From contig CP070727.1 in the NCBI GenBank assembly GCA_020350885.1, positions 3,732,738 to 3,796,737 on the forward strand: a stretch of 64,000 nucleotides of DNA. Reading direction: 5' to 3'. Source of the DNA: a bacterium. GTDB taxonomy: Bacteria; Krumholzibacteriota; Krumholzibacteriia; Krumholzibacteriales; Krumholzibacteriaceae. The stretch's first letter is position 1; every line of letters starts with the position of its first letter. Shown piece after piece: positions 40,690 to 61,546 of the stretch. The notes below the pieces were generated by a model. The model ran no database searches, was not told the DNA's origin, and saw only the letters and a list, made by a program, of their open reading frames with translations. Position numbers and translations under genes: made by a program.

Positions 40690-40693
40690 GCTG

Positions 40694-41938: not shown

Positions 41939-42001
41939 CAGGCGAGAAGGGCCGGTATACCTCATACACACTGCGGATCCGGTACAGAAAGTGAACACGG
42001 T

Positions 42002-43132: not shown

Positions 43133-43171
43133 GTGAAGGACCGCGATGGGGATTCGATGCAAAGTCCCGCA

Positions 43172-44236
43172 CTACCTGGATAGACCATCCATTATCAATC
43201 GATAGAGCCGGACTTCCGGCTTTACTACTATCTCGGTCCTACCCGTCAAACCGTATTTGAGGAAGGTCCGGTCGCCGTTCTCCTCTTCCACCCAGGGTTC
43301 CTCTATCGCTATTTCGACCTCGAATGTGGATTGACCACGTGAGACCATCGGGACCGATGCAATCCTGCCCACCCTTCCCTCGAAGACCTTGTACTCCCTA
43401 TGGGGATAACTATTCAAGAATATCTTCGCGTCCTGGCCCCGCTGTACATCCGTGATATCGGTTTCACCGATATCGGCAGAAAAGATCACCGTATCAAAGA
43501 ATCCGATCTCCATAACCGGCTTCCCCTTGCCGACCATGGTACCTACCAGGTTCTCCGGTGCAGCGGTCAGTACGGTCCCTTCCCCTGGTGCCAGTACAAC
43601 GGTCTCATCCAGCTTCTTCTTCGAAAGTGCGAAGGAGCTTTCCGCCAGCTCGAGGTTTCTGCGCTTTTCCTCTATCTGCCGTTCGAGCTGCTTCTTGAGA
43701 ATCTGGTTTCTGGACTTGAGAATCTCGTAGTATGACTTGCTCGACTCGTAGCCGAGTTTCGCCCTCTCGTACTCCTCGGCGTTGACCAATTCCTTATCGA
43801 AGAGCTTTGTTACCCGCTCGAGGTTCTCCTCGTTGAACTTCATTCGTTGCTCTGCTTCGTTGAGATCGGCCAGTATCATGCCGAGCTCGTATGACTTGCT
43901 CGTCGTCAGATTCCTGTATTCATCTTCCGCTCTCCTGAGCTCGGAACGGGCATTTGCCAGTATATTCCCCGCGCGCTTAACCTCCAGCTCGATCTCTTCA
44001 GAATAAATGGTGAAAAGGGTGTCGTTTCTCGCAACCTTTTCTCCCTCAATGACAAAGACTTCTTCGACTATGCCGTTGATTCTCGGCGCGACACCGACCT
44101 GCCGTCCCGGCGAGACCATGCCAAAACCTTCGACGGTCTCATCCATCTTGCCGAAGTAGAGAACGGCGGCGGCACAAATGAGGATCGAGATCGCAATATA
44201 GAAGGCAAATGCGAATACTTTCGTTACCCGTTTCAT
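43172..44236 (-). CDS. HlyD-family membrane fusion protein (secretion/efflux adaptor)
   Basis: 354 aa; N-terminal TM anchor, long coiled-coil (heptad EE/KR-rich 100-200), beta-barrel/lipoyl-like C-terminal region; downstream of ABC exporter gene. Confidence 0.75.
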   Translation of the reverse strand: MKRVTKVFAFAFYIAISILICAAAVLYFGKMDETVEGFGMVSPGRQVGVAPRINGIVEEVFVIEGEKVARNDTLFTIYSEEIELEVKRAGNILANARSELRRAEDEYRNLTTSKSYELGMILADLNEAEQRMKFNEENLERVTKLFDKELVNAEEYERAKLGYESSKSYYEILKSRNQILKKQLERQIEEKRRNLELAESSFALSKKKLDETVVLAPGEGTVLTAAPENLVGTMVGKGKPVMEIGFFDTVIFSADIGETDITDVQRGQDAKIFLNSYPHREYKVFEGRVGRIASVPMVSRGQSTFEVEIAIEEPWVEEENGDRTFLKYGLTGRTEIVVKPEVRLYRLIMDGLSR

Positions 44237-44281
44237 GTCTATCAGTGTACCCTGTATCCGTGGGTAATCCGGACGATATCG

Positions 44282-46081
44282 CTACCGGTTCTGCGACTTC
44301 CTCGTCTTCGTTATCCTCGACTCACTTTCACGTGTCATTTGATCCCACAACATCCTGTATATCCCGCCCCGGTTCATGAGATCTTCATGGATACCTACCT
44401 CGGCGAACCGCCCCTCATACAGGACATAAATTGCATCCGCATCAATAATGGAAGTTAATCTGTGGGCCACGATGATTGTGGTTTTCTTCTCCATGAGTGG
44501 TTCCAGGGCCCTGTGAATAAATAATTCCGATTTCGTATCCAGTGAGGACATCGCCTCATCGAGAATCAGAATCTCCGGATCCTTCAGTATCGTTCTTGCT
44601 ATCGAGATCCTCTGACACTGGCCGCCCGAGAGCCGCAGGCCCCTTTCCCCCACTACGGTGTCGTAACCGTCGGGAAGGCTCGTTATGAAGCCATGGATAT
44701 CAGCCTTCCTGGCGGCCTCCAGGATCTCGTCCTTCGTGGCCCTCCTGTTACCATACATGATGTTCTCTCGTATCGTCGTATTGAACAGGATGGTTTCCTG
44801 TGATACCAGACCAATGTGCTGCCGCAGGGAATGCAGCTTGATCTCCCGCAGATCTGTGCCGTCAATTAGAACCCGACCCGATGTCGGATCGTGGAACCTG
44901 CTTATGAGATCGACGATCGTGCTCTTTCCAACGCCGCTCGGACCAACGACGGCGACCCTCTGCCCGGGATCGATATGCATGGAAACATCGATCAGAACAG
45001 GCTCGTCGGGGTTATAAGAGAAATGAACCTTTTCGAAATCGATTTCACCCCTCACCCTCTCGATTCTCCTGCTGCCGGGAATATCAACGATCATCGGCTG
45101 GACATCGAAGAACTCGAAGATCCTGTCGATCGCCGCACGTGCCGTCTGGATCGAAACATTGTACTGCGCAAGCCTGAAGATCGGCCTGAAGAGCCTGCCC
45201 ACGTATGCATAGAAGGCGACGAAGCTGCCCAGGGACAGGGCACCCGCCATGACCTGGCGGGCCCCGTATACAAGTACGATTACAGGACCGAGTGTGGATA
45301 GGAAGACGGCGATCGATGCCGACACCGCTCCCAGTACACCCAGGGTTATTCTCAGATTTATGAGTTCCTTGCTCTTTCGTAACAGACGTATCGCTTCGAA
45401 TCTCTCCTTGACGAAGGACTGGATGAGCTTGATGGACGAGAAGGTTTCCTGGAAAAAACTTACTATCTCTGCCGATTTATCGCGGGTCTCCCTGCTCTTC
45501 TTCTTTATCTTGCGCCCCAGGTAAAACTGGGTGATGAACAGGGCAGGGAAGATCACCATCGACAACAGAGCCAGCTTCCAGTTGAGGAACAGCATGATAA
45601 CAATGATGATGGCAATTGATGCGATATCGGTCACGAGGGCTATCAGTGTTGTGGTGAGAACATCCTGCACTCTCGATACATCGTTGTTGACCCGCGTAAT
45701 GATTTCACCTGTCTTGGTCTCGGTAAAAAATCCTATGTGAAGATGCTCCAGGTGCCTGAAAAGGTCGAATCTTATGTTGAAGAGGATCCTCTGACCTACA
45801 TACTGTATCAGGTAGTTTATGACCACCCTCATTCCACATCTCAGAAGAAAGAGCGCTATCAGGGCGATGACGATTACATTTAAAAGAGGTATGTTCCTGT
45901 CGATTATCACGTCGTCGATCACTATCTTCATTGCAAGCGGATCGAGCAGGGATAGCCCGGCGACGATCATCATCAGGAAGGCAATGCCCAGCTCCAAACC
46001 GAGAAACGGTTTGATGTACCTGATGATTCTCTTCGACGATTTCTTCGGAGCATTTTCTCTATCTGATTTCATACAAACCAC
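44282..46081 (-). CDS. ABC exporter, fused TMD-NBD (type I exporter, MsbA/peptide-exporter-like); no N-terminal C39 peptidase domain
   Basis: 599 aa; six TM helices then Walker A GPSGVGKST, Q-loop, signature LSGGQCQR, Walker B ILILDEAMSSLD, H-loop. Confidence 0.85.
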   Translation of the reverse strand: MVCMKSDRENAPKKSSKRIIRYIKPFLGLELGIAFLMMIVAGLSLLDPLAMKIVIDDVIIDRNIPLLNVIVIALIALFLLRCGMRVVINYLIQYVGQRILFNIRFDLFRHLEHLHIGFFTETKTGEIITRVNNDVSRVQDVLTTTLIALVTDIASIAIIIVIMLFLNWKLALLSMVIFPALFITQFYLGRKIKKKSRETRDKSAEIVSFFQETFSSIKLIQSFVKERFEAIRLLRKSKELINLRITLGVLGAVSASIAVFLSTLGPVIVLVYGARQVMAGALSLGSFVAFYAYVGRLFRPIFRLAQYNVSIQTARAAIDRIFEFFDVQPMIVDIPGSRRIERVRGEIDFEKVHFSYNPDEPVLIDVSMHIDPGQRVAVVGPSGVGKSTIVDLISRFHDPTSGRVLIDGTDLREIKLHSLRQHIGLVSQETILFNTTIRENIMYGNRRATKDEILEAARKADIHGFITSLPDGYDTVVGERGLRLSGGQCQRISIARTILKDPEILILDEAMSSLDTKSELFIHRALEPLMEKKTTIIVAHRLTSIIDADAIYVLYEGRFAEVGIHEDLMNRGGIYRMLWDQMTRESESRITKTRKSQNR

Positions 46082-47628: not shown

Positions 47629-48789
47629 ATGCCGCAACCAATTGATTATGACGAAGATCGTATCAAACGATTGATACAGGAAAAGCAGGCAAACGAGATC
47701 GAGCTGGCCTGGGATCTTCTGGAGGTCTTCAACACCAACGAACCACTAGTCGGTCCGCTGAGACAGCTCGTCAGCTTTGCGGTGGATGAGCTGGAGGAGA
47801 TGAAGAGGGAGAGTCATATCGGACATCAGATCGTCAAGGCGGCCTGGAACAAGGAGGTCGGGGGTCCCAAGAACAAGACATTGATAAATTACGGGAATCT
47901 CATAAAGATACGGAACAACGTACCGGCTCTCAAGGCCGAGGAGTGCAACGACATTATCCGCTACTACGGCGAAGTCGTCGAGATGGCGGCAGAGAAATAC
48001 AGGGCACAAAAGAAAGCAGCAAAGTATGTACCCCCCACAGGCACGCTGAGGAAATACGACGTGCTGGATACAGAGAAGGGTACATTCCGCAGGGGAGGTG
48101 ACCCCGTCTGGAAGGTCGGACGACAGCGCGATAAGAAGCCTCCGACTGCCCCGGTGGAACATCCGTACAGCGCTCCATATGATTTCATATACAGCCAGAA
48201 AGGCGGCATAGCGAATATCACACTCAGAGACACCAGCACGGTTCTCAGGATCGACAGGGTATTCGGGTTGGCGCTGGCCGGCGATATCTCCGGCACGACG
48301 ACCGATGCACTGTTCTTTATCAACCGCTACGCAAACCTGTTCCGCGCCCAATTCAATCAGTATCCTCTTTTTGCAGGGGCGCTCGATGATCCCATCTACC
48401 AGTTACTTCCTCTTGCGACACTCGTGGCTGGCGGGCACCATTCGCTGGTCGAGTCGGCTCTGTCCCTCACGATCAACAGGCATCTCACCGGTGTGAACTA
48501 CAAGATCGGTTTGTACACCTCGCTGCTTCCCGACAACACGAATCACCCAACGCGGGGTGAGATATGGAATAAGCTGCACCTGGCCGAAACGAATATGCGC
48601 AACCGCCTCATGCTCATCTACTACAAGAGGCCGACCCGGATCGGGGGATGTTTCCTCTTCGCCAAGAAGGGAATTGAGAAACACCAATTCGAGCAGCTGG
48701 CGACGGCGAATCTACACCTGTTGCATACCTTCATGCAGTGTCATTTGTGGCCCACGGAGGAGTATGTCCGGCGCCTCTTCGAGGCATAG
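47629..48789 (+). CDS. Hypothetical soluble protein (386 aa) adjacent and convergent to the T6SS PAAR-like gene; possible effector/cargo or immunity candidate
   Basis: Start MPQPIDYDEDRIK with AAGGAGG RBS (ORF track starts 47326); no recognisable motif. Confidence 0.45.
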   Translation: MPQPIDYDEDRIKRLIQEKQANEIELAWDLLEVFNTNEPLVGPLRQLVSFAVDELEEMKRESHIGHQIVKAAWNKEVGGPKNKTLINYGNLIKIRNNVPALKAEECNDIIRYYGEVVEMAAEKYRAQKKAAKYVPPTGTLRKYDVLDTEKGTFRRGGDPVWKVGRQRDKKPPTAPVEHPYSAPYDFIYSQKGGIANITLRDTSTVLRIDRVFGLALAGDISGTTTDALFFINRYANLFRAQFNQYPLFAGALDDPIYQLLPLATLVAGGHHSLVESALSLTINRHLTGVNYKIGLYTSLLPDNTNHPTRGEIWNKLHLAETNMRNRLMLIYYKRPTRIGGCFLFAKKGIEKHQFEQLATANLHLLHTFMQCHLWPTEEYVRRLFEA

Positions 48790-48806: not shown

Positions 48807-49166
48807 CTACTTCGTTTCCTCGATTACATTGCTGGGATTGGTGATACTGATCATCCCGCCGATTCCACACACCAATTTACTCGTATCCGTAAGGACCGGC
48901 AGGTTGTTGATCTTCTGAACGATCGACCCGGGCATCCATGTACCGGCGGGCGCCATGGCGCACGGTGTGGGCGTACCCATGGCCGATGCGGTTAATATCT
49001 GACACGTGCCGAAGGGTGGCAGGTTCGACCCGGTCACGCAGTCCTGGATCGTTGCGACCAGCATGCCGCCTATCTTGACGATCTGCTGGCTCGTCACAGA
49101 CAGCGTGGACGGGGCACTGCCCATGGGACAACTACACATCGCTCCCTGACAGACCGCCTTCGGCAT
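48807..49166 (-). CDS. DUF4280 PAAR-like spike-tip protein
   Basis: 119 aa MPKAVCQGAMCSCPMGSAPSTLSV...PFGTCQ...PCAMAPAGTWMPGS...KLVCGIGGMISI: Cys/Gly/Pro pattern of DUF4280 PAAR-like proteins; last gene of contractile-system operon. Confidence 0.6.
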   Translation of the reverse strand: MPKAVCQGAMCSCPMGSAPSTLSVTSQQIVKIGGMLVATIQDCVTGSNLPPFGTCQILTASAMGTPTPCAMAPAGTWMPGSIVQKINNLPVLTDTSKLVCGIGGMISITNPSNVIEETK

Positions 49167-49224
49167 TATGGATCCTTCTCTGCTATCGTAATTCTCCGTG
49201 TGCCGCCCGTCGCAGGCGACACCG

Positions 49225-49911
49225 TCACGAATCCTTCTTCCTGACCTTCCCCAGTGCCGTATTCAATCCGACGACCGGCAATTCCACACCGGTTGTACCT
49301 TTCTCTTCATCCTTACGGATCAATTGCATCGTATAATCACTCTCGCTGACACGGAAACGAAGGACGTAATCCAGATTCAACGGGACGGCACGCTCGAGTG
49401 AGCTCATGATGCAATCGACGACATCCGGGCGCTGCCTCAATACGGTCGCCTGTGCCATCTTCAGCTCGACATCGATGGTCAGGGTCCACACGGTCTCGGC
49501 CGGGCTCGAGCCCAGAGCGATTTCCTGGCCGATGGGTGCACTGCCAAGGGCAAAACCGGAACCGCTCGATTCAACGAGCGGCCTGCTCCCGATACGCCTG
49601 CATTCGAGACCTATCGTCACAGGCGCCCGCCCTACCTCCTCGGCCTCCTCCCTGCTCGTGGCGAGCAGTATCGAGAATCCGAGACAAACCACCGTCTGCA
49701 CGAGTTTGCGCAGGCTGTCCTGATCGTTGCTGGATGAGAGAATGTAGGCGCGCACATGACGCCACACGCGGTATTCATAGTAGGTCCGCAGCAATGCAGT
49801 CACATCATTGTCCTCGACCGTCTCATCCCGTGGTGTCGAGGAGACGAAGCGGCTCTCCACCCTGCCCCGGATGTAACTATCCCGTTCGATGGACAGTGCT
49901 CCGGTAGACAT
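49225..49911 (-). CDS. Hypothetical T6SS-associated protein (possibly baseplate TssG/TssE-like)
   Basis: 228 aa, operon position between VgrG-downstream gene and PAAR-like gene; no clear motif. Confidence 0.3.
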   Translation of the reverse strand: MSTGALSIERDSYIRGRVESRFVSSTPRDETVEDNDVTALLRTYYEYRVWRHVRAYILSSSNDQDSLRKLVQTVVCLGFSILLATSREEAEEVGRAPVTIGLECRRIGSRPLVESSGSGFALGSAPIGQEIALGSSPAETVWTLTIDVELKMAQATVLRQRPDVVDCIMSSLERAVPLNLDYVLRFRVSESDYTMQLIRKDEEKGTTGVELPVVGLNTALGKVRKKDS

Positions 49912-49915
49912 CCCC

Positions 49916-51430
49916 TTACCTCACTTCCATGATGATACGGCTTCCGATCGGGGCACGGTCGTTCAGGTAACCTTGAATCATAGCAATGTCCCTTATGTCA
50001 AGCGGCTTGCCTCCCCTGTTCCTCACATAGACGACCGTGACCCGCTGCCGGGCGCCATCGATGACCCGGAGCTCCGTAACAGGATCGTGGATATCGACGT
50101 CCCGGTATCCGAGCCCGGTGATGAGTTCCTCGATCGTCGACAACAGCGTGTCCCGGTACAGGAGCTTTTGAGGTGGAATGGCATGGCCGAGTATCAAACG
50201 ATTGTACCAGTCCGATTCGTCCGATCTCTCACAATCGCCGCCCCCGAAGCAGGGCATGATCGTGAAAGCCGACTGCATCAGTGTCGAGGCCTTGTGAAGC
50301 GGCTGGAAGATATCCGTCTCGTTGTATGTGTAGTTGTATCCCGACAACGCGTTCCCATGCGTCATCCACATGAAGAACTGTTTCTTCTTCTCGGTGTCCT
50401 TCTCTCCGGGAAGGCTGTAGTGATTCAGCACCGAACCCGATGGATCTATCTGAACGGAGAAGACCGGGCTGCCCGCATCCACCGGGCCGAGGAACTCCTT
50501 TTTCCCCGCCTTCCGGAAGGGGAATATTCCTGCCGCTCCGAGCGGTTTCATCCCCGAGCTACGCACAAAATCGGCAAATGTCTCGTTCGGTTCCCATGCC
50601 TTGAGATCGACGTTCATGATAGGCAGGACGTTTGCGAAGATCGATATCCCGGAAAGCAGGGGCTCCCCTACGCCAGCCTCGTGATAGAGCCTCCTGAGGG
50701 ACTCCTCACGGAGACGAAAATGCAACTCAAGCGAATCCATATCGAGATCCACCGTCTGCCCGTCGAAGGATTCGACCTGGGGACCGAACTCCAGCCGGAA
50801 CACGAAGGGTGAAAGAAGCTGATATGCATAGTTCAACGGGAAGCAGAGACTCTCCGCCGCTCGCTCGGGCACCCATGACGAGAGCGCCCACTTGGGCTCG
50901 AGATCGAGGGAACGATCCCGCAGGCGCAGCTCCACGGTGATTTCCCGGCCCGTCCTCTCCATGGCCCGGCTGATCGCAATAAGCTCTTCAGGCGTCCACT
51001 GTCGCTGCTCCCTCTTGTAATCCCAGGGAAGCACGGCAAAATGGATACTGACCTTTTCCCACCGGTCGTTCGGCTTGAGCTCTACCGTCTTTTCGAACTT
51101 GGATATCTCTTTACCTTGTTCCACGTCGATGAGCGGGATCGTTACATCCACAATGGGCGTGAAGAACGCTATCTCGTAGGGGGTTTCGGAAGCCGATTCC
51201 GCATCCGTTTTCAGAGAGATGAGATCGCCGGGGCGCCACCGCTCCGCCCCCTGCTTCATCCTCGTGATCCACGATTCGCTCGAAAGAATCGAGACCGCAG
51301 GCAGGGCCGTGAATCCCGGAATGAAGAGTCCCGTCGTATCCTGAAAGAAATCACCGATGATCTTGCTTTCGGTGAAGCTTTTGATCTCGGCGAGCAGTTG
51401 TTCGAGATGATCATCCTTTTTCGCTGGCAT
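49916..51430 (-). CDS. Hypothetical T6SS-associated protein (possibly baseplate TssF-like)
   Basis: 504 aa, operon position immediately after VgrG-like gene; size compatible with TssF; assignment tentative. Confidence 0.3.
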   Translation of the reverse strand: MPAKKDDHLEQLLAEIKSFTESKIIGDFFQDTTGLFIPGFTALPAVSILSSESWITRMKQGAERWRPGDLISLKTDAESASETPYEIAFFTPIVDVTIPLIDVEQGKEISKFEKTVELKPNDRWEKVSIHFAVLPWDYKREQRQWTPEELIAISRAMERTGREITVELRLRDRSLDLEPKWALSSWVPERAAESLCFPLNYAYQLLSPFVFRLEFGPQVESFDGQTVDLDMDSLELHFRLREESLRRLYHEAGVGEPLLSGISIFANVLPIMNVDLKAWEPNETFADFVRSSGMKPLGAAGIFPFRKAGKKEFLGPVDAGSPVFSVQIDPSGSVLNHYSLPGEKDTEKKKQFFMWMTHGNALSGYNYTYNETDIFQPLHKASTLMQSAFTIMPCFGGGDCERSDESDWYNRLILGHAIPPQKLLYRDTLLSTIEELITGLGYRDVDIHDPVTELRVIDGARQRVTVVYVRNRGGKPLDIRDIAMIQGYLNDRAPIGSRIIMEVR

Positions 51431-51446
51431 ATGCTACACCTGCCGA

Positions 51447-52955
51447 TCAGCCAACATCCAACTTCATGGTCTTGAGCTTTATACCCGTCGGTGCATCGAG
51501 TGTGATCGATCCCGTTGCCGAGAGCTCGATGTCACTGGAATCCATCTTGACCGTCGAGCCGGCTGCATCGATCTCGATGAGCTTTTGCTCCATCCGGATC
51601 TCGACGTCCTTGTTCTGCATCGTGATCTTGTCCTTGCTGATATGGATCGTCTGGCCGTCGACCGTCTGCAATACGAGATTCGCCTTGGGCTCGCCGACCT
51701 TATCCCCGGCCGTTACACAGCCCAGCACCAGCGGATCCATGTCGTTCTGCCCCCAGACGACCAGCACCGTGTCACCCTGCCGCGGCGGTATGAAGTGCAT
51801 ATGCTCCTTCCCCCAAGAGGGGGCTGCGATTCTCAGCCAGGGTGTCACCTTCTGGTTGCCGTCCCACGGGAACATCACACGGACACGGTTGAGATCGTCG
51901 TTCGTCTCTTCCACAACGGCCGTTGAGGTTATCAATGATCTCTGATGCTTGATCTCATCGGATAGGACACCTTCGGGATTCACCGCCTCGAAACGCCAGA
52001 TCACCTCATTGGTGCTATAGTCACCGGCACACTGGACAGTGCGGATAATCCCGGTTTCTGCGCCCGCCCCGGCACCGGCGCCCTGCACCGTGACTTTGGC
52101 CCCGAGCTCGACGGGCGACAGCACGCGCCCCTCGATCATGAACCGGCCGGCCGCCTGCGATCGCAGAAAGCGGTTTGCGGAATGTTTCGTGTCGTCGTAG
52201 CTCGTATCCTCGTGGACGACATGGAGGAGCCTCTTTGCCTTTGCCTTCTTCCGAAGGTCGATGGAGGCATCCTGGATCGAGCCAAAACTCCCACCCTTGA
52301 GCTCGTACTCAGAGGTCTTTGGTTTGTTCTTCACGTACGGGATGGATGTGAGCTCGATCTGCTCAGCCCCCAGTCGCGTATGAATGAGAAACTCCTGGAT
52401 GTCCTTATCGAGCTTGAGCGATTTGGACTGGGGCGTCGGCCCCACGCCGATATAGACCTTGTCCCGGGCACACCAGATCTGTCCCCCGAACTCCGACAGG
52501 AGCCTCTTGATGAACCGAAGTGCCGACTCCTGGTACTGAATGGCGAGCTTTACCTTGATGCCGTCGTAGCCGCCCAGGTATTCGACGCTCACCCCCGACG
52601 GGGTCACACTGGAGACGATATCCTTGATCGTCTGGTCGGCGAAGACGTTGGAGTCGATCGTTCCATCGAACTTCAACAGCTCGTCGCGCACCGTGAGCCG
52701 AAAATCCCCCGAAGAGGAGTCATACGTTATGGAATCCACGGTGCCGGCAAAACGCCAATCGCCGACCGAACAGGTCACCTCCTCGCCGAGGGCTCCCTGA
52801 ACGGAGGCGTAGGCGTCAAGATGAGGTTCACTCGTGGTCTGGCGGGAGTGCAAGTTTAAATGAAGCCATCCGATTTCGCCGAGTGCCTGAAAAGCGTCGA
52901 AACCGGTTACGGTGTGCTTACTCAAAAATTTCGGTTTGCCCTCGAAGGTGAGCAT
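51447..52955 (-). CDS. vgrG: VgrG-like spike protein (gp27/gp5 fusion)
   Basis: 502 aa; central RQGDTVLVVWGQNDMDPLVLGCV matching VgrG/gp5 OB-fold motif (GQEVxVxFxxGDPDRPxIxG); C-terminal beta-helix-like repeats (IHISKDKITMQNKDVEIRMEQKLIEID...). Confidence 0.7.
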   Translation of the reverse strand: MLTFEGKPKFLSKHTVTGFDAFQALGEIGWLHLNLHSRQTTSEPHLDAYASVQGALGEEVTCSVGDWRFAGTVDSITYDSSSGDFRLTVRDELLKFDGTIDSNVFADQTIKDIVSSVTPSGVSVEYLGGYDGIKVKLAIQYQESALRFIKRLLSEFGGQIWCARDKVYIGVGPTPQSKSLKLDKDIQEFLIHTRLGAEQIELTSIPYVKNKPKTSEYELKGGSFGSIQDASIDLRKKAKAKRLLHVVHEDTSYDDTKHSANRFLRSQAAGRFMIEGRVLSPVELGAKVTVQGAGAGAGAETGIIRTVQCAGDYSTNEVIWRFEAVNPEGVLSDEIKHQRSLITSTAVVEETNDDLNRVRVMFPWDGNQKVTPWLRIAAPSWGKEHMHFIPPRQGDTVLVVWGQNDMDPLVLGCVTAGDKVGEPKANLVLQTVDGQTIHISKDKITMQNKDVEIRMEQKLIEIDAAGSTVKMDSSDIELSATGSITLDAPTGIKLKTMKLDVG

Positions 52956-53011
52956 ACGAATACACCTCCACCTCTTGTGCCACCGGGCTCACATTGTGAC
53001 GTTTCGGATGT

Positions 53012-53434
53012 CTATTCTGCGAACAACTTCTCTCGAGCGTCGTGTTTGAAGTTCTCCCCCGAGATCGTGACCTCGGTCGCAATGAAGTTGACATTAAAGT
53101 TGAAGTTGTCATCGTGCTCGGAAACGCTCGTGGCGATATCTGAAAACCAGGCCTTCGAGAAGGTAATGGTCTGAATTGCCTGGCCCTCCTTCTTGTCGTC
53201 ATGCCCCTTGAACACCGATATCTGCCCCTTGCCCTTCGCCTTGGCATTGGCATGCTGGGTCCTCGCAAAGTTGAAGAAATCCTTTGCGGGTGACGCCTTC
53301 GGGGGTATCTCCAGGGCTACGTTGATCGATCCCGGGATGCAATCGGCGAGCTGGTGGGCACCTGCGCTCTGTAGCGAAACGCTGAAGGCGTTTACCTTGT
53401 AAGTCTTGTTGTTCCATTTGAATTCGATGACCAC
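53012..53434 (-). CDS. hcp: Hcp/tail-tube-like protein
   Basis: 140 aa, size and position (between sheath-like and VgrG-like genes), beta-rich composition. Confidence 0.5.
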   Translation of the reverse strand: MVIEFKWNNKTYKVNAFSVSLQSAGAHQLADCIPGSINVALEIPPKASPAKDFFNFARTQHANAKAKGKGQISVFKGHDDKKEGQAIQTITFSKAWFSDIATSVSEHDDNFNFNVNFIATEVTISGENFKHDAREKLFAE

Positions 53435-53509
53435 GATTCAACCTCCTTTATAAACGATTAACGGTTACAATCGCTCCTGCGGTACGGACCGATACGAGCA
53501 GCCCACTCG

Positions 53510-54928
53510 CTAGGCTTCCTCGGCCCCCTCTCCTTCCTCGCGGCTTTCCGCATCTATCTCGAAACTCTCGGCCGTGGCCGACCAGTTGACCTGGACCTTG
53601 ATCTTGAACCGGCCCAATTCATCCTTCTCGCACGTCGGGACCTTCCACCCCAGGATCTGCTTCTTGTCCATCATGTCCTGGAGATAGCGTTCCACCTGCT
53701 TCTTGATCACCGTCGGATCTTCCTGGCCGCCCACGTACCGCTCGAGCTGCGTGACGAGGAAGAAGTAGATACGGTTCTTTGTCACACGCGCCTGGGACTG
53801 TATGAGCGGGACGGCCTGATTGCCCAGGGAATCCACATCGACGGCATCCTCGGGAAAGACGGTCGATCCGCCGTAGATGCGCACACCGGGCTCCTTGGCG
53901 TCCTGCTCCTTGGTCGTCGTGAAGGCGTAGTTGAACTGCTGCTCGACCGCTTTGCGCCACGTATCGAGCTTGTCGACCGTATTCACCGTACCCATATCGG
54001 ACGGTTTGAGCTTCGGGTGAATGATCGGATTGAACCACATCCCCTTCTTCTCTCTCTGGAAATACCGGGTCATCTGGGCGGCGAAGGCGGTGTTGAGCCC
54101 GACCGTGAGCGGCTCCGTCTCGTGGTACTCCTTGTACGCATCCCGGACCACCAGATCGTTGGCCACGATCGAGGCGCGTGAGAGAAGCTCCTGCTCCTCG
54201 TCGTTCACGGAGGTGATGTCGAACTTCCACTCCTTGGTGATCTTACCGAAGGAGTCCTTGGTGTTGCCGAGAGACAGGCTGCCCATGATGTGCATGTGAT
54301 ACCTATCGGCGAGGCGCAGGTACGGAACGAGCGACATCGTCTCTCCCTCGATCTTCTCGAACGGTAGAAACATGAAGCTACGGTACTGGCCGCGCCCGAT
54401 GTGGAAATTCGTCGACTTCAGCTCGTGATCCAGGGCCTTCTGGAACGCCGGCTTTATGAGGTAGTTCGGGCAGAGGAGCACCGTTGTCTGACCCTTGGGA
54501 AGGGCCGCCCCACCGGCATGAACCGAGTTCGACTTCCACATGACGAGCTGGTTGGCGAGTATCTCGCGGGGACGGAGCCTCTGGAGCATCTGCCCGACAC
54601 CGAGGTTGATCGCGCTCGAGAGCGCCTTCTGCGACTCGCGGAGCTTCGTGAGCTCCACGTTCTGCTGCTTCTCGGGATCGAGTGAATCGGCGATGAGGTT
54701 CAGCACCTCCGCCATGATGAGCTTCTTGCGGTAGGTGAAGTTGGGACTCACCTTGAGGTCTTTGTTGGTCGCCCACTTCGCATTGAGAATATCGAGCTCG
54801 GTATTCTGCTTGGTCTTCGCGTTGAGGACCGCATCCGCCTGTGCCGCCACCTCGGCCTCGAGGGGCTCGACCTTCTGTAGCTGCTCGATCGGACGTCTTC
54901 CTGCTTCGTTCATCTCGGGAGTCATCAC
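53510..54928 (-). CDS. tssC: Contractile sheath large subunit (TssC-like / phage tail sheath-like)
   Basis: 472 aa; position immediately upstream of tube gene and downstream of a small TssB-sized gene with 4-nt overlap; size typical of T6SS-iii TssC; acidic C-terminus. Confidence 0.5.
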   Translation of the reverse strand: MMTPEMNEAGRRPIEQLQKVEPLEAEVAAQADAVLNAKTKQNTELDILNAKWATNKDLKVSPNFTYRKKLIMAEVLNLIADSLDPEKQQNVELTKLRESQKALSSAINLGVGQMLQRLRPREILANQLVMWKSNSVHAGGAALPKGQTTVLLCPNYLIKPAFQKALDHELKSTNFHIGRGQYRSFMFLPFEKIEGETMSLVPYLRLADRYHMHIMGSLSLGNTKDSFGKITKEWKFDITSVNDEEQELLSRASIVANDLVVRDAYKEYHETEPLTVGLNTAFAAQMTRYFQREKKGMWFNPIIHPKLKPSDMGTVNTVDKLDTWRKAVEQQFNYAFTTTKEQDAKEPGVRIYGGSTVFPEDAVDVDSLGNQAVPLIQSQARVTKNRIYFFLVTQLERYVGGQEDPTVIKKQVERYLQDMMDKKQILGWKVPTCEKDELGRFKIKVQVNWSATAESFEIDAESREEGEGAEEA

Positions 54929-55620
54929 TCACCTCCCTGGAACAGCTCGTTCACATCGCCCTCCGTCAATCCGCCTTCCTGAATCGCATCCTCTGTGGTG
55001 ACGGTGTAGCGCATGAACCGATCCTTTGTATTCTCAACGGCCTGCCGCAGACGGGCGTTGTCCTCGTCCGTCTTGCTGTCGATCTCGTTGAGGGCTTCGT
55101 CCTGGAGCTCGGCGGAGAGCTGCCGCGCCCGTTGTGCGACAATCTTCTTCTCCTCGTCACTCATCGAGCCCACGAAATCCAGCGCTGCGGGATCCTTCAC
55201 GAAGTGCGTGACCGCATTGAGCTTGGCCTGCAGCTGGGCGAGCAGCGCAGACCGCCAGATGAGCTCCTTCGGATCGTCGATCCACTTGGAGTCGTCCACG
55301 GAAAAGCGGTCCGCAATGGCTTCGCTGAGCGCTATGAAGCCCTCACCGGTCGGATTGAGGAACACGTTGCCCGTGTAATCCGTGAGTTTTTCGAGAAGAG
55401 CCTTTATCGTGTCCTTACCGAGCTGCTTGGAGAAATCAAGCGAGCCCGTTACCGGACACCGGGCAAAGATGTCGTTTTCGTCCTTGACGCTGTCGAGGAG
55501 GACCATGTCGCTCATCCCCTCGTCGACGCCAACATTGATGTTCTGATCCAGCGCGCCCTCCTCGGCGGCCCTCTCGACCGGGTCGCCTTTTATGATCTGC
55601 GCGCCTTTCTTTCCAGCCAT
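54925..55620 (-). CDS. Possible sheath small subunit (TssB-like)
   Basis: 231 aa acidic protein, ATGA overlap with sheath gene, directly downstream of clpV; no strong motif. Confidence 0.3.
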   Translation of the reverse strand: MAGKKGAQIIKGDPVERAAEEGALDQNINVGVDEGMSDMVLLDSVKDENDIFARCPVTGSLDFSKQLGKDTIKALLEKLTDYTGNVFLNPTGEGFIALSEAIADRFSVDDSKWIDDPKELIWRSALLAQLQAKLNAVTHFVKDPAALDFVGSMSDEEKKIVAQRARQLSAELQDEALNEIDSKTDEDNARLRQAVENTKDRFMRYTVTTEDAIQEGGLTEGDVNELFQGGE

Positions 55621-55646
55621 GTGAAACCTCCAGCATTAATGCCGGC

Positions 55647-57923
55647 TCACTTGACCTTCAGTGAGCCATCGTCTCCAACAAATAACGTATAGCTTCCTCC
55701 GGATGTAATAAGCCCGTTAATGAAACCATCACCAATCACTCGGGATACGGTGCTTTCGACAAGCCGCTGCACGGAACGGGCTCCCGTCGTCCGGCTGTCG
55801 ATCTGTGATATGATCCACTCCATGGTAGCATCTTCGACCGTAATCGTGCATGTCATAATTTCGCTTGTCGATACCTGAGAGATCACGCGATCGATCTCCC
55901 GGCGGGCGATCTTCTTCAGCGTTTCGTTTCCGAGGCGGCCGAACGGAATGATCTCCAGCCGATCGACGAATTCCCGCCGGAACGTCGGACCCTGCTGGTG
56001 GGGATTGTGGGGATCGTGATACTGCAGCAGCAACTCACGGATTGCGGGGCCCTCGAGATCCTCGACATCGGCAAGGGCGTTCGACGTCATGATAAACACC
56101 GAGTTCTTGCAATCGACGATGCGACCGTGGTTATCCGTGAGATGACCATCGCTCAGCACCTGAAGCAGCACATCGAAAACACGGTTGGCACCCTTCTCGA
56201 TCTCATCGAACAGGACCACACTGTACGGATTTTCCATCAGCCGGTTCGTCAACTCGCCGCCCTCGTCATAGCCGACGTATCCCGGCGGCGGCCCGACAAG
56301 GCGCTGGTAGCTCTCGGGCGTTTGAAACTCCGACATGTTGAAGCGCACGAGTGCCCTGGGATTGCCCATGAGATACTCGGCCACCGCCTTGGCCAGCTCT
56401 GTCTTTCCCGTGCCGGGCGGGCCGACACAAATGAACGACACCTTTGTCCTTGAGGGATCGCTCAGGCCCAGGCGGAGGCGCTGGATGGCGCTTGTCATCG
56501 CATTCGTCGCCCGCTTTTGATCATATACGCGGCTTTCCAGGTAATCCTTGAGACCCTTGAGCCGTGCATGCTCCATCTCAGAAAGGCGTGAGATAGGGAT
56601 GCCGGACTCCCGCGAGATCACCTTGAGCACGGTCTCCGTTGTAACGCCGCCGTCGGTTTTCTTACCCGCTTCACTTTCATCGCGCACATTCTGAAAGGCG
56701 GAGTCGAGGATCGATATCGCTTTCGCCGGGAACCGCAGCGAGGGAAGATACCGCTCGCAGTTACTGACGATTGCACTTACTGCATCCTCTTCGATACCGT
56801 ATCCGAAATGTTTCTCGAAACGCGGCAGGTGGGCGCGCAACATATCGAGCGTCTCCTCGCGTGTGGGTTCGTCCACCTTCACAACCTCAAACCGTCGCAC
56901 GAATGCATCGTTCGGACGGATCTTTCCTTCGAAGTCCTTCGTCGTCGTCGCCGTGATCAATTTGAAGGCGCACCGGCTCAGGTAGGGATTGAACAGTCCG
57001 AGGAGATTGCTCGATCCGGTGCTGCCCGGGTCGGCGAGAATATGAACCTCGTCCAGAAAGAGAATGATATCCTTCCGTACGATCGCCGCATCGATGAGCT
57101 GCTGGAGCCGTTCCTCGAGCTGTCCCCTATAGCTCGCCCCGGCGATCAACGACGAGCAGGAGACCGAATATATCTGGCAGCCTTCGAGCCACTTCGGCGC
57201 CTCGTCCGTGCCGAGCCATGCAGCCAGCCCCTCGACGACGGCCGTCTTCCCGACACCCGGATCGCCGATGACCATCGGATTCGGTCGAACGAGACGCCCC
57301 AGGATGCCGGCGATGTGGCGTATCCGGTCCATGCGCGTCTTCGTCAGGTCGAATTCCTTGCTCTTGACGGATTCGGATAGGTTCTCGGCGTACCGGGCAA
57401 GCACATCCTCGAACGTCTTTGCCCCCTTTCCGGATGGAACGGCCTTCGGCGTCGGTGTCTTCGAATCGGTTGTGGCGGCAGCGATTGCCGGATTCACCTT
57501 CGCGAATTCCAGATATACCTCGTCGATCGAGAACGGGGCGGTCCGCAGTTCGCTGGAGACGAATCCGAGACCGGTGCTCAGCATCGACTCGACGATGTCG
57601 TATTCGTTCAAGAGGCGCTCGAATTCCCGTCCCTTTGCAACCAGATCACTCGCGGTGGCGGCCTCGAGGATCGGTTCGGTCGTGCCAGAGTATCGGGTCG
57701 TTGCCTTCTCGGCAATCGGGAGGCACCAGCTCACCGCCTCTTCGGGGTCGGCGCCGGTGCGCAGAAGGGCATTGTCTATGAGACCGCTCTCGAGTGCGAC
57801 GAGAAGCATCTGCGGTCCGCGGAAGTATCGCTGCCCGAATGCGACAGCCCTCTCCCGGGCCTTCTCGACGAGGCCGAGACCGCTCTCGTCAAGCCAGTGG
57901 TTGACATCGGAAAATGTCGGCAT
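55647..57923 (-). CDS. clpV: ClpV/ClpB-like double-ring AAA+ ATPase (T6SS TssH)
   Basis: 758 aa; D1 Walker A GDPGVGKTAVVEGLA, Walker B ILFLDEVH; D2 Walker A GPPGTGKTELAKAVA, Walker B VVLFDEIEKG, sensor/Arg finger regions; lacks long ClpB middle domain. Confidence 0.8.
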   Translation of the reverse strand: MPTFSDVNHWLDESGLGLVEKARERAVAFGQRYFRGPQMLLVALESGLIDNALLRTGADPEEAVSWCLPIAEKATTRYSGTTEPILEAATASDLVAKGREFERLLNEYDIVESMLSTGLGFVSSELRTAPFSIDEVYLEFAKVNPAIAAATTDSKTPTPKAVPSGKGAKTFEDVLARYAENLSESVKSKEFDLTKTRMDRIRHIAGILGRLVRPNPMVIGDPGVGKTAVVEGLAAWLGTDEAPKWLEGCQIYSVSCSSLIAGASYRGQLEERLQQLIDAAIVRKDIILFLDEVHILADPGSTGSSNLLGLFNPYLSRCAFKLITATTTKDFEGKIRPNDAFVRRFEVVKVDEPTREETLDMLRAHLPRFEKHFGYGIEEDAVSAIVSNCERYLPSLRFPAKAISILDSAFQNVRDESEAGKKTDGGVTTETVLKVISRESGIPISRLSEMEHARLKGLKDYLESRVYDQKRATNAMTSAIQRLRLGLSDPSRTKVSFICVGPPGTGKTELAKAVAEYLMGNPRALVRFNMSEFQTPESYQRLVGPPPGYVGYDEGGELTNRLMENPYSVVLFDEIEKGANRVFDVLLQVLSDGHLTDNHGRIVDCKNSVFIMTSNALADVEDLEGPAIRELLLQYHDPHNPHQQGPTFRREFVDRLEIIPFGRLGNETLKKIARREIDRVISQVSTSEIMTCTITVEDATMEWIISQIDSRTTGARSVQRLVESTVSRVIGDGFINGLITSGGSYTLFVGDDGSLKVK

Positions 57924-58019
57924 GCGCTACTCCCGTTCGAGTTCGATTCAGAGCTCCGGCACCACAAATCTTGCGCTACGATGCTGCTTGTGACTGCTCT
58001 CGACGGATGAGCTCGTCTA

Positions 58020-59000
58020 TTAGAATTTCACTTTTATAGCCATTGAACGGGGACCCGGCTCGAAGCGAACAGCCAGCGCTTCATCCGAGCGACCGTCATC
58101 CGACTTGCTGAGAAACGGCACGCCCTTGCCGCGGAAGTACCTGTAGATCAGAACGCTTGTCACGACGGCCGATACACCCGTTACGATCCACAGCACCGTT
58201 GACGTACCATCGTCGTCCGTTGACGCCGCCCAGGCTGCCGCGCCGCCGGTGACCGCCAGGCCGCCCAACGGCCATAGTATGCTCATTCTCCCGGAAAATA
58301 CCAACGGTACCGCCGTTGTCAGGCCGTGTTTCTTGTCACTGATAATGAGAGTACCGGATTGGTTTCCCCCCTTGAGGGCCGAGACGACGATCTTGCTACC
58401 CTCGGATCTGGCCGTTCCGCTTCCCTTGGGTTTTACCTCTATGCTGAAATTCGGGGAAAGCGACGTGAGTTGGATGTTCTCACTATTGATATACGTGGCG
58501 GTGAATACCGCCTCCTGCTGCTTCGTGATGGTCGCCTTTTTCGGATTCGTCGTGATACCCTTCGGTTTGTAGAAGCGGTTGAGTTGATTCGATACTGCCG
58601 ACTTATTACGCTCGCTCCAGGTGAATCCCTTGACCGCCCTCGCGGCCCCCTCGCTCCCTGCTCCTGCCATGATCTTCCACAGGAGCGGCTCGAGTTTGTA
58701 GTCGGTATCCTTGTGCAAGTTGTTCGCGAAATAGTGATCGACGACGGGGAGTATGTAGTCGTTCCAGACCGTGGAACTCTTCTTGTAATTACCGGTCTCG
58801 ACCACCTTCACCAGACACGGGAAGGTGGGCTTGTATTGGGCCTTGACAAGATATCCCTCATGAATGAGCTTCGGTGTTTTAAGTTTATCGCAGGGATCGT
58901 CCTCCTGCTGTGTAACGGCACCTGAGGGTGAACTCACACAGACGAGCAACATCGTCATGGAGATACAGATCCACACGCGTGTCGGGCAAACAAACCTCAT
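58020..59000 (-). CDS. Membrane-anchored protein (signal peptide + C-terminal TM), candidate T6SS membrane-complex component
   Basis: 326 aa; N-terminal signal, C-terminal helix VLWIVTGVSAVVTSVLIY; overlaps next gene by 4 nt. Confidence 0.35.
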   Translation of the reverse strand: MRFVCPTRVWICISMTMLLVCVSSPSGAVTQQEDDPCDKLKTPKLIHEGYLVKAQYKPTFPCLVKVVETGNYKKSSTVWNDYILPVVDHYFANNLHKDTDYKLEPLLWKIMAGAGSEGAARAVKGFTWSERNKSAVSNQLNRFYKPKGITTNPKKATITKQQEAVFTATYINSENIQLTSLSPNFSIEVKPKGSGTARSEGSKIVVSALKGGNQSGTLIISDKKHGLTTAVPLVFSGRMSILWPLGGLAVTGGAAAWAASTDDDGTSTVLWIVTGVSAVVTSVLIYRYFRGKGVPFLSKSDDGRSDEALAVRFEPGPRSMAIKVKF

Positions 59001-60238
59001 TGATTCCCCCCTGTATTATAACGAAGCGTGATGGTGGCATCGATAGTATCGGCCACGACAAAGATGAAGTCGCTCTTCTTCGTGACACCGCCCATACCGG
59101 GATCGGAGCTCAGGAACAGCTCGTCACTCAGCTTGAACTTGAACTCGTATTCTCCTGGTACCAGATCGAAATGCCAGCTCACTTCACCCGTCAACGAGTA
59201 CTCGAAGCCATTGAATAGTAACGGAATCTGAAGATTCTCATAGCCACTTGCTCCAGCGTAGCCGACAACCGTTACCGAGGTCGTATCGACAACAGTCGCC
59301 GAATCCGGCATTGCCGGAGGCAGCGGCTCGGTCCACATGCTGTCGGACTCGCTGATCCCCCCTTGAACCGCCCTCTCGAGAACCATGGCATGCTTTCGAA
59401 TCGGTTCTTCACGCGGGAAGATGTAGACGGTGTGCGATCCCTTCTCGAGACTTGCAGTTGGTTTTCCGTCTACCAATGGTACGAACTCCGCGGCACCATT
59501 GACCTTGACATTGCATTCGTAGGGTGCATCGAAGGTCACCCTGAAGCTCGGTACGTCGGTTCTCCACAAGAAGATCACGAGGAGAATGGCAACGATGCCC
59601 AGCGTGATCGCATAGCCCGTGAAGGGTCCTCTCGGTCCATAAAAGAAACATGGCGGCCAATCGAACCAGATCCGTGGCTTGACATCGACCTCGAGATCCG
59701 TCTCGAATCCCTGCTCGGCGAGGCTCAGATTCGGCTGGATCTTCTTTTTGGGGGCTCTCAGCTCAAACTGTTTTACGTTTTTAATTTCTTTACCGTAGAA
59801 TTTGTGTTTTCCGCTTATCTCGCCAAGCTTTTCCTCGATCTGGCCGATGAGCTGCTCGCTCGGGCTTACGGCTACGGTCTCCTTGATACTCAGCGTCTTG
59901 CGCCTGCCGAAGTATATCTTCCGCTGATCATCCGGATCATCGGCCTTGATTCGCATGGACAGGTTTATCTGGGAGGCAAGGTACCGCACTACTATCTCAT
60001 CGTGTTCATTGATACCGGGTGCGGCCTGCTGGACGGGAAGCTTCAGATTCAGGCGGACGCCCTTGTGCTCGACGATGACATTCTGTGCGGTGGCTTCCGG
60101 ATGCAACAGCCCTTTTTCTATGGCCTTCGGGACGATACGGGCAAGGTTTTCCTCGATGGTGACGTTGTCCTCGAATGTCGTAAACGCCTTCCGATCGTTC
60201 CCGGCAGCATCCCTATATACGATCCTGTATGTTCCCAT
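58997..60238 (-). CDS. Bitopic membrane protein, candidate T6SS membrane-complex component
   Basis: 413 aa; central TM FTGYAITLGIVAILLVIFLW; in operon between TssK-like and membrane protein genes. Confidence 0.35.
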   Translation of the reverse strand: MGTYRIVYRDAAGNDRKAFTTFEDNVTIEENLARIVPKAIEKGLLHPEATAQNVIVEHKGVRLNLKLPVQQAAPGINEHDEIVVRYLASQINLSMRIKADDPDDQRKIYFGRRKTLSIKETVAVSPSEQLIGQIEEKLGEISGKHKFYGKEIKNVKQFELRAPKKKIQPNLSLAEQGFETDLEVDVKPRIWFDWPPCFFYGPRGPFTGYAITLGIVAILLVIFLWRTDVPSFRVTFDAPYECNVKVNGAAEFVPLVDGKPTASLEKGSHTVYIFPREEPIRKHAMVLERAVQGGISESDSMWTEPLPPAMPDSATVVDTTSVTVVGYAGASGYENLQIPLLFNGFEYSLTGEVSWHFDLVPGEYEFKFKLSDELFLSSDPGMGGVTKKSDFIFVVADTIDATITLRYNTGGNQ

Positions 60239-60267
60239 CCCAATATGCCTCTCGTTACAGCGTGCAC

Positions 60268-61365
60268 CTAGATTATATCCAAGTCCTCGATGATTTGCTG
60301 AAGCTGTTCGATCGATCTACTGAGCAACGGTTCGGTATTGATGCAGAGATCTTCCCAGGTCAATCCCTTGAGATCCGGCCGTCTTGCGTAAAACTTCGGC
60401 AGATTGTCCTCACCGTATGCACGTGCGAAGTACCGCTCGTGCCAATCGGAAAGCGGATACATCAAATCGTAGAACAATGTCGCCGCGCTGATCTGCGGCA
60501 GATGGTGGATCAGCCCCAGCTTTGCGAGTAGAAACGTTCGCAATACGAGAATGTCCATGGCCTTGAAGAGTAGCTCGCTGTCCAGCTCCCCTATCAGGGC
60601 CTTGGTCTGTTCCGTCCGTTTCCGCGACACCTCCGATAAGAGTGTATTGAACAACCTCGACAGGTTATCGATATCGCCGCCGAATGCACGGGCATGCTCC
60701 AATCGCAAGACCGGCGGCACGTAATCCTCACGCAGCTTGATCTCGGGGCCGGCATTCTCGAGAAGCCCGAGCGCGACGAAGTCCACGAATGCATTGTGGA
60801 TATTTGACTTGTATTGGGATACCTCGATGAGTTCCAGTCCTACTGCGGGATATGCGAGCTCGATCTCCTCTGAACCCGCCGCCACACCCTCTTGCTGCAG
60901 GAACCGCCCTACCTGGTAATCGACCTTGAGACCGCGCCTGGTCTCCGGCCGGCCGGCTACGACATACTCACCGGGCGGAAAGCTATCCTTTTTCTGCACG
61001 ACCTTGAGATGCGGCATCGGCCACCCGAGGCGTTTCCCGCCGCTCTCGACACCGATGAATAGCTGTCCGTTGGGGGTCAGGGCCTTGATGGTCCGTGGTA
61101 TCTTGAAGGTGATCCCGACGGTCTGCTCCTGATGGTTAACCTCCGTGATCTCGATGGGCTGCATGCGCGCCCCGACCGATGTATCCACATCTATGATACC
61201 AGGTTGCCTCATGTGGAGACGCTGCGTCTCGGCGAAGAGATGATTCGACCGCTGGTCGGCATGGGAGAAATGAATCTCGTTGACCAGGAGGCCGTCGTAC
61301 CAGTTCACACCCAAGAGCTTCTCGATACTGTCACGAATCATAGTTTCCCTCTGCCGCTCTGACAT
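60268..61365 (-). CDS. tssK: TssK-like baseplate protein (short form)
   Basis: 365 aa; N-terminal NWYDGLLVNEIHFSHADQ resembling TssK N-terminal LWEDGxxLxPQHFQQ shoulder-domain motif; first gene of the operon. Confidence 0.4.
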   Translation of the reverse strand: MSERQRETMIRDSIEKLLGVNWYDGLLVNEIHFSHADQRSNHLFAETQRLHMRQPGIIDVDTSVGARMQPIEITEVNHQEQTVGITFKIPRTIKALTPNGQLFIGVESGGKRLGWPMPHLKVVQKKDSFPPGEYVVAGRPETRRGLKVDYQVGRFLQQEGVAAGSEEIELAYPAVGLELIEVSQYKSNIHNAFVDFVALGLLENAGPEIKLREDYVPPVLRLEHARAFGGDIDNLSRLFNTLLSEVSRKRTEQTKALIGELDSELLFKAMDILVLRTFLLAKLGLIHHLPQISAATLFYDLMYPLSDWHERYFARAYGEDNLPKFYARRPDLKGLTWEDLCINTEPLLSRSIEQLQQIIEDLDII

Positions 61366-61546
61366 ACACTAATCCCTCGGCACGCCCAACGTGCCCAGGC
61401 TAGGAATTTTCGAGGATATCCTAGTTTTCAACATAAGTAATGTCAAGACATAAGTTGACGTGTCAACACTTTTTATACCGTTCTACCATGCGGACAATTC
61501 ATACAATGATTCCACCGGTAAATCGATACAGGTTCGGGTGCATTAT

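Follow-up and report, generated by a model that had tools for sequence, protein, structure and literature searches.

The contractile injection machine of Bacteroidota that forms subtype iii of the type VI secretion system (T6SSiii) was reportedly described by Russell et al. in 2014. In the account of Bongiovanni et al. 2024 (PMC10781749), it consists of TssB-K plus a TssNOPQR membrane complex, of which TssN and TssP are nearly ubiquitous and TssO, TssQ and TssR cannot always be recognised, not even in Bacteroidota, the phylum to which T6SSiii is restricted (PMC10433429, PMC13584744). Reviews of 2023 and August 2026 list four T6SS classes, those of Pseudomonadota, Francisella, Bacteroidota and Amoebophilus (PMC10433429, PMC13584744). 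Here we describe a locus of eleven genes (g1-g11, 12.6 kb) at positions 48807-61365 of a 64,000-nucleotide stretch of DNA from a bacterium of the Krumholzibacteriaceae (GenBank assembly GCA_020350885.1, contig CP070727.1, positions 3,732,738 to 3,796,737 of the forward strand; hereafter the window). It probably encodes an envelope-anchored T6SS-type contractile injection machine of an undescribed lineage, found mostly in metagenome bins of Latescibacterota and Krumholzibacteria, whose predicted sheath, tube and TssK-like proteins are nearest to those of T6SSiii. A search of the literature found no description of this cluster.

All eleven open reading frames (ORFs) lie in one direction on the minus strand with intergenic spacings of -4 to 96 nt, and their coordinates were confirmed, in agreement with an earlier reading of this DNA made from the letters alone (the sequence-only reading). 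That reading had also reported several ATGA-type overlaps. The g2/g3 junction is indeed a true ATGA overlap, but only one other junction overlaps, g5/g6, which reads GTGA (TGATG should translation begin at the following ATG) and has GGAGG just upstream; each overlap is 4 bases long. Searches with Pfam and NCBIfam models gave any signal in only four of the eleven proteins, clear for g4, g8 and g11 and faint for g1. Sequence and profile searches of the PDB with g6, g9, g7, g5 and g1 returned nothing relevant.

Sheath, tube, spike and a possible cargo slot

A word-indexed search of 5.8 billion proteins with the g6 product (53510-54928, minus strand; 472 aa) recovered relatives in 48 clusters only, all unnamed. 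Where a label exists, it points to Latescibacteria or Krumholzibacteria metagenome-assembled genomes, to one Pirellulales bin and to one source given only as 'bacterium'. An AlphaFold model built on 45 of the 48 clusters (mean pLDDT 74.7) displays a long N-terminal helical region, as in T6SS large sheath subunits, and is closest to T6SS TssC and IglB, with the sheaths of extracellular contractile injection systems (eCIS) scoring lower. When 1.84 billion representatives were searched exhaustively by HMMER with the g6 family profile, 15 proteins matched, and the sole match from outside the family was P0084 (E 1.4e-4), a PF17541 TssC. This protein sits in a textbook T6SSiii locus, L012, which encodes TssN, ClpV, VipA/TssB, TssC, TssD, VgrG, gp25/TssE and TssF.

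Family profiles of the locus were compared by hhalign with a panel of TssA/B/C/E/F/G/J/K/L, Hcp and TssN profiles taken from four plasmid loci of subtype i (T6SSi) and from L012. The panel was informative for g6, g7 and g1 only; the positive controls revealed a lack of power across subtypes for TssC, TssF, TssG and TssK, and little should be read into the negatives for g9 and g10. The g6 family matched the L012 TssC at 95.2% (E 2.5e-8, 314 columns), and that of g7 (53012-53434, minus strand; 140 aa) matched the L012 TssD (PF17642) at 95.4% (E 1.8e-8). The g7 orthologues of all loci were also recovered by phmmer with this TssD. By the same hhalign method, TssC of subtype i against that of subtype iii reached 1.8% and Hcp against TssD 11.5%, which indicates that, in sheath and tube, less distance separates the lineage described here from subtype iii than separates subtype iii from subtype i. 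On these profile comparisons, g6 is a TssC-type large sheath subunit and g7 a TssD/Hcp-type tube protein, both remote homologues of their T6SSiii counterparts, as the sequence-only reading had anticipated in calling them TssC-like and Hcp-like. Two tandem copies of the tube gene were observed in a related contig (L022, 3231-4026). A phage or prophage origin was considered and rejected, since no relative of the g6 sheath is encoded among 2.9 million viral contigs.

The gene preceding the sheath gene and overlapping it by 4 nt, g5 (54925-55620, minus strand; 231 aa), stands at the tssB position of L012. From this position and its translational coupling to g6, it is presumed to encode the small sheath subunit, a TssB analogue. 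The product had been described as TssB-sized, which proved wrong, as TssB measures 151-174 aa in five reference loci. It has no family match and no PDB match. A first alignment with T6SSiii TssB was collinear (E 0.012) but was not sustained by the comparison with 18 orthologues and a combined TssB profile, which gave 1.0%; a search for further TssB relatives yielded 8 close sequences only.

The g8 product (51447-52955, minus strand; 502 aa) is a VgrG spike protein. Its matches to PF05954 Phage_GPD, at 42.5 bits, and to PF04717 Phage_base_V, at 37.8 bits, exceed the gathering thresholds; TIGR03361 and TIGR01646 match below cut-off, and phmmer with T6SSiii VgrG as query gave E 1.3e-12. The VgrG motif GDTVLVVWGQNDMDPLVLG, noted already in the sequence-only reading, was found at residue 394. 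The DUF4280 protein that this reading had placed at the tip was likewise recovered: g11 (48807-49166, minus strand; 119 aa) matches PF14107 (E 3.3e-24, 86 bits) and is a PAAR-like spike tip protein. The DUF4280 gene is the only gene of the cluster that moves, lying between vgrG and g9 in other loci; where some loci have a small gene at that site, it likewise encodes a DUF4280 protein and not TssE.

The ORF adjoining the tip gene varies between loci. In the window, it is a convergent ORF at 47629-48789 on the plus strand (~386 aa, open from 47326), which has no Pfam or PDB match, and homologues with 29% identity immediately adjoin the DUF4280 gene of both L005 and L006. Such variability next to the tip gene, together with the counterparts in these two loci, fits a cargo slot, and the ORF may encode a cargo or effector of the system, its membership being uncertain. 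In another, divergent locus (L024, 13510-15111), two ORFs of 150 aa and 182 aa come after the 104-aa tip gene and may form an effector-immunity pair. A guess from His/Asp motifs that the 150-aa product is an M15/LAS cell-wall peptidase was abandoned, as it has no PDB sequence match.

Putative baseplate proteins, ATPase and membrane proteins

The first gene of the locus, g1 (60268-61365, minus strand; 365 aa), had been read as TssK-like. TIGR03353 TssK was matched at E 4.9e-5, far below cut-off, and PF05936 T6SS_VasE was matched by four of six g1 orthologues (best E 9.8e-4). The two best matches of g1 in the hhalign panel were a 392-aa protein of L012 (45.6%, E 2.1e-4) and T6SSi TssK (E 0.011). 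The 392-aa protein has no Pfam match on record and reaches 0.6% against T6SSi TssK, and its TssK identity is assumed. The alignment of g1 displays two shared motifs, an N-terminal NW.DG...N..HF and YVPP. These signals, weak but consistent, suggest that g1 encodes a TssK-like baseplate protein, which would link the baseplate to the membrane complex.

Two genes downstream of vgrG had been left as unknowns. The product of g9 (49916-51430, minus strand; 504 aa) is 100% identical to GenBank UCF05186.1, annotated as 'MAG: hypothetical protein JSV33_14910 [bacterium]'. Its model, of low confidence, shows fold-level likeness to gp6/TssF, Baseplate-J, Afp11 and Pvc11; a Foldseek search of the PDB with this poor model returned few near-full-length alignments, two of them to TssF and a Baseplate-J protein, and none was significant. 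The next gene, g10 (49225-49911, minus strand; 228 aa), begins 4 nt after g9. Its own product has no family match; the orthologue on a Krumholzibacteria contig (L009) aligns with PF06996 T6SS_TssG over the C-terminal third of the model, at E 2.2e-4 and 21 bits, just short of the cut-off of 24.6. When Pfam was run at relaxed settings on single orthologues of g1, g2, g3, g5, g9 and g10, only sub-threshold TssK and TssG matches emerged, and none for g2, g3, g5 and g9. Read together with the gene order VgrG-g9-g10, the two proteins are most likely a TssF/gp6-like and a TssG-like baseplate wedge protein, both assignments being of moderate to low confidence.

Of the three components that the sequence-only reading had proposed to look for with profiles, TssG is thus seen below threshold in the L009 orthologue of g10, TssF has no sequence match and TssE was not found. 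A phmmer search with T6SSiii TssE, which covered the window and loci L001-L011 but not the rest of the 4.13-Mb genome, retrieved nothing, all family profiles except that of g11 reached at most 4.4% against TssE by hhalign, and the later loci have no room for an extra conserved gene such as TssE. The statement that canonical TssJ, TssL and TssM are not evident stood up: neither these nor TssA had a Pfam or NCBIfam match among the eleven proteins, and hhalign of the family profiles against TssA, TssL and TssJ from the reference loci gave at most 2%. The machine appears to work without a recognisable TssE/gp25 sheath initiator or TssA cap.

The ATPase gene g4 (55647-57923, minus strand; 758 aa) occupies the same position in every locus. 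Its product, which is presumed to recycle the sheath, is a double-ring Hsp100 unfoldase resembling ClpV, with AAA, AAA_lid_9, AAA_2 and ClpB_D2-small domains. All of the canonical Walker motifs claimed for the two AAA+ rings were found, Walker A as GDPGVGKT (220) and GPPGTGKT (501) and Walker B as ILFLDE (287) and VVLFDE (569), and the pore loops read SYRG and GYVG. The scores were 452 bits for the ClpB model, 440 for ClpV1 and 433 for ClpA, all below cut-off (for TIGR03345, 440 bits against a cut-off of 885). It aligns with the ClpA model in one stretch, and the ClpB and ClpV matches are split where the middle domain is missing. Identity to T6SSiii ClpV is 32-34%; the latter has a Clp_N domain and ~70 extra residues between the rings, and g4 has neither. 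No IG[FLM] tripeptide for ClpP docking was found in g4. The absence of the middle domain and of the ClpP loop argues that g4 is neither a ClpB-type DnaK-partner disaggregase nor a protease adaptor, and the invariant synteny ties the ATPase to the system. Housekeeping ClpB was set aside as an identity for g4 on these grounds, namely no middle domain, no ClpP loop and constant presence in the cluster.

The presence of two membrane-anchored proteins was borne out. One of them, g2 (58997-60238, minus strand; 413 aa), is always encoded between g1 and g3 and is a bitopic inner-membrane protein with a single transmembrane (TM) helix at ~207-227, preceded by ~200 aa and followed by ~185 aa; the TM segment is hydrophobic in all orthologues. 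The other, g3 (58020-59000, minus strand; 326 aa), is an envelope protein that begins with a signal or anchor, continues with a periplasmic domain and closes with two C-terminal hydrophobic segments and a tail. Its orthologues range from 325 to 464 aa and differ in the number of domains inserted in the periplasmic part. In every orthologue (window, L001, L002 and L005-L007), the tail finishes as a strand of alternating hydrophobic residues whose last residue is Phe, the C-termini being IKVKF, FNVTF, FNLSF, VHVSF, FTYNF and VQVRF. Such an ending is similar to the beta-signal at the C-terminus of outer-membrane proteins; in g3, two hydrophobic helices lie directly upstream of this beta-signal-like strand.

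Neither g2 nor g3 has a Pfam or NCBIfam match to TssJ, TssL, TssM, TssN (PF17555 or related models) or any other family, and hhalign of both against the L012 TssN gave at most 0.3%. In the T6SSiii complex, TssN has five TM helices and a cytoplasmic domain, TssO, TssP and TssQ have an N-terminal TM helix, and TssR is a lipoprotein (PMC10781749). Topology and invariant synteny lead us to presume that g2 and g3 are membrane-complex subunits.

Conservation, distribution and genomic setting

Relatives of the locus were drawn from genome and metagenome collections. At least seven independent loci were obtained, of which L001, L002, L005, L006, L007 and L024 are complete and L021 is truncated in g9. 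Wherever a related contig covers g1-g10, the genes stand in the same order, with sheath identities to the window of 46-92%, and this recurrence shows that the arrangement does not reflect chance. The ten core ORFs are intact and collinear, many residues are invariant and translational coupling is retained, which indicates that purifying selection acts on an assembly that works.

Related contigs are labelled Candidatus Latescibacterota, Krumholzibacteria, 'bacterium' or, in one case, a Pirellulales bin, and none is labelled Bacteroidota. We take the hosts of the family to belong to the FCB superphylum (Fibrobacteres, Chlorobi and Bacteroidetes). The window fits such a host, as it also encodes three large proteins (26802-29741, 30590-34636 and 35041-37296) with C-terminal FlgD_ig or Por_Secre_tail domains, which serve sorting in type IX secretion (T9SS). 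The member assigned to Pirellulales (L011, JAFGTN010000271.1) lies on a 4.1-kb contig and was either spread beyond the FCB group by horizontal transfer or binned in error. Pairs of g5 and g6 that are much more distant were observed on the short metagenome contigs L033 (1.8 kb, 35% identity) and L035 (40%), the fragmented matches in L033 suggesting frameshifts. The family is probably broader than the 48 clusters.

Ordinary chromosomal genes flank the locus: upstream, one for uridine kinase, and downstream, those for a GT87 glycosyltransferase and an ABC exporter together with a lanthipeptide-like cluster. This cluster (39463-46081) comprises a protein with a weak RamC_N match, a Ser/Thr-kinase-domain protein and a LanC-like cyclase on the plus strand, then an HlyD-family protein and an ABC exporter on the minus strand. 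A sigma-70-like promoter candidate, TTGACA-17-TAGGAT (61418-61446, minus strand; 10/12 matches), lies ~50 nt upstream of the g1 start; such sites are no more numerous in the region than in shuffled sequence, and the candidate is a weak pointer. Farther away in the window, adjacent genes encode polyphosphate kinase 1 and a two-domain PPK2 (14859-18798, minus strand), and a cellulose-synthase-like GT2 glycosyltransferase with a C-terminal PilZ domain (5497-7716, minus strand) is likely controlled by c-di-GMP.

Comparison with described systems and alternative explanations

Besides the remote homology of sheath and tube and the match of g1 to the presumed TssK, the central gene order ClpV-x-TssC-TssD-VgrG-(TssE)-TssF is common to L012 and the window locus, and TssJ, TssL, TssM and TssA are lacking in both (PMC13584744 for subtype iii). 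The two loci also differ. The window locus has two unrelated membrane proteins of other topology instead of TssN/O/P/Q/R, no TssE, a 231-aa protein without a TssB signal at the TssB position, and a ClpV-like ATPase with no Clp_N match and no ~70-aa middle insert. All of its parts are shorter, exemplified by g9 (504 aa against 629 aa for TssF) and g1 (365 aa against 392 aa). The sequence-only reading had offered subtype iii as a possible class, which we do not adopt, given the missing TssN/O/P/Q/R, the differing topologies (PMC10781749) and hosts that are not Bacteroidota.

With T6SSi, the class of Pseudomonadota with 13 core genes (TssA-M), the locus shares the same overall parts (sheath, tube, VgrG, PAAR-like tip, TssK/F/G-like baseplate and ClpV), but it lacks TssA, TssE, TssJ, TssL and TssM, shows no profile-level similarity of sheath or tube (1.8% and 1.1%), and spans 12.6 kb against ~20 kb in the reference locus L014. 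The subtype ii system of the Francisella pathogenicity island is, like the present one, a case of extreme divergence, and its IglG is a DUF4280 PAAR-like tip, as is g11. Francisella keeps DotU and PdpB, which are TssL/TssM-like, and is not known to have a ClpV of its own, ClpB serving in its place; the window locus, in contrast, has an apparently dedicated ATPase within the cluster, and no DotU/IcmF-like proteins were found in it.

Several observations weigh against an envelope-anchored T6SS-type machine. Seven of the eleven proteins (g2, g3, g5, g6, g7, g9 and g10) match no Pfam or NCBIfam model, in which they also differ from T6SSiii. The reading of g5 as TssB found no significant similarity to rest on by any sequence method used (family, PDB or hhalign); the hhalign negative covers TssB of both subtypes i and iii, and since the TssB control works, with subtype i against subtype iii reaching 91% with the same small profiles, this negative is real. 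For g9, neither per-orthologue Pfam scans nor hhalign gave sequence-level support for TssF, and the model behind its assignment is of low confidence. The scores of g4 fail to separate ClpV from ClpB, ClpA or ClpK. The role of g2 and g3 is read from topology and synteny. No GPW_gp25 or TssE match occurs in the eleven proteins, whereas TssE is counted among nine universal T6SS components (PMC10781749). Finally, we infer function here from the genes of uncultured bacteria alone.

A rival explanation is that the locus is a very divergent member of T6SSiii, with g2 and g3 as unrecognisable versions of TssN/O/P/Q/R and the remaining parts elsewhere in the genome. The only sequence bridges out of the family do lead to the TssC, the TssD and the presumed 392-aa TssK of L012, the central gene order is that of T6SSiii, and the hosts are presumably of the same FCB superphylum, with T9SS sorting domains in the window. 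The difficulty in identifying TssO, TssQ and TssR at times within Bacteroidota would excuse some of the gaps, but not the failure to detect both of the near-ubiquitous TssN and TssP (PMC10781749). A TssN with five TM helices and a cytoplasmic domain is also hard to recognise in g2, whose single TM helix has ~200 and ~185 aa at its sides; the membrane proteins number two rather than five; TssB, TssE and TssF are detectable by Pfam in L012 and undetectable or absent here; and the hosts are not Bacteroidota. We consider this explanation unlikely.

Still less probable, in our judgement far-fetched, is an extracellular or cytoplasmic phage-tail-like particle of the eCIS, T6SSiv or CISSc kind that is not anchored in the envelope. 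Afp/PVC-like systems share the contractile sheath-tube-spike architecture, the low-confidence g9 model resembles gp6, Baseplate-J, Afp11 and Pvc11, a fold that occurs also in eCIS, DUF4280 and VgrG-like spikes are common to both kinds of system, and no canonical membrane complex was found. Against these points stand a sheath closest to T6SS sheaths with the long N-terminal helical region, a tube homologous to TssD, the TssK-like signals and two conserved membrane proteins within the operon. In addition, eCIS and T6SSiv have no TssK and no ClpV-type ATPase (for ClpV in T6SSiv, PMC10433429), whereas a double-ring enzyme of this type is encoded in the cluster, and they carry tape-measure, terminator and gp25 genes, which the locus lacks; no tape-measure, terminator or Afp-type gene was recognised by Pfam or NCBIfam across the eleven proteins. 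The preference of the sequence-only reading for a T6SS-like locus over a phage tail or eCIS was therefore upheld by the sheath model nearest TssC and IglB, the TssD-like tube and the lack of viral relatives. We give equally little credence to a decaying or non-secretory remnant, be it a co-opted sheath-tube assembly or a system inactive for want of the essential TssE. TssE is absent from all loci, and activity is deduced from genes alone; such decay, however, sits badly with ten core ORFs that remain intact and collinear at 46%-92% sheath identity, with their invariant residues and coupling kept.

We thus favour an envelope-anchored T6SS-type machine, apparently a compact, deeply diverged sister of subtype iii with a new two-protein anchor and no TssE. 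In such a machine, g2 and g3 would anchor the apparatus in the envelope, as their topology and invariant synteny suggest, and g1 would dock the g9-g10 wedge around three copies of VgrG with the DUF4280 protein as their cap; of the parts of this step, VgrG and DUF4280 are firmly identified, the others weakly supported. The g7 tube would polymerise on the spike and be wrapped by the g6 sheath, which g5, judging from translational coupling and position, probably joins as the small subunit. On contraction, the tube and spike would be expelled from the cell together with their attached cargo, for which the variable ORF next to the tip gene is a candidate, and the g4 Hsp100 would, by the precedent of ClpV, then unfold the contracted sheath for reuse.

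Whether the family amounts to a fifth T6SS class is a matter on which we see the chances as evenly balanced; it would be the most compact one known (10 core genes plus the tip, 12.6 kb), with a new two-protein membrane complex, a sheath nucleated without gp25/TssE and, in g5, a small sheath subunit unrelated in sequence to TssB. With this family, T6SS-type weapons would reach little-studied phyla of sediment and soil in which standard profile tools register none. The family would also provide a natural minimal system, with two membrane proteins against the three of TssJLM or the five of TssNOPQR and with neither TssE nor TssA, and its small size could interest engineers of injection systems. 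The finding bears on which parts of the machine are indispensable and on how a phage-derived core was repeatedly grafted onto different envelope anchors; with a sheath and tube near subtype iii and an anchor that is not, the order of these events becomes testable.

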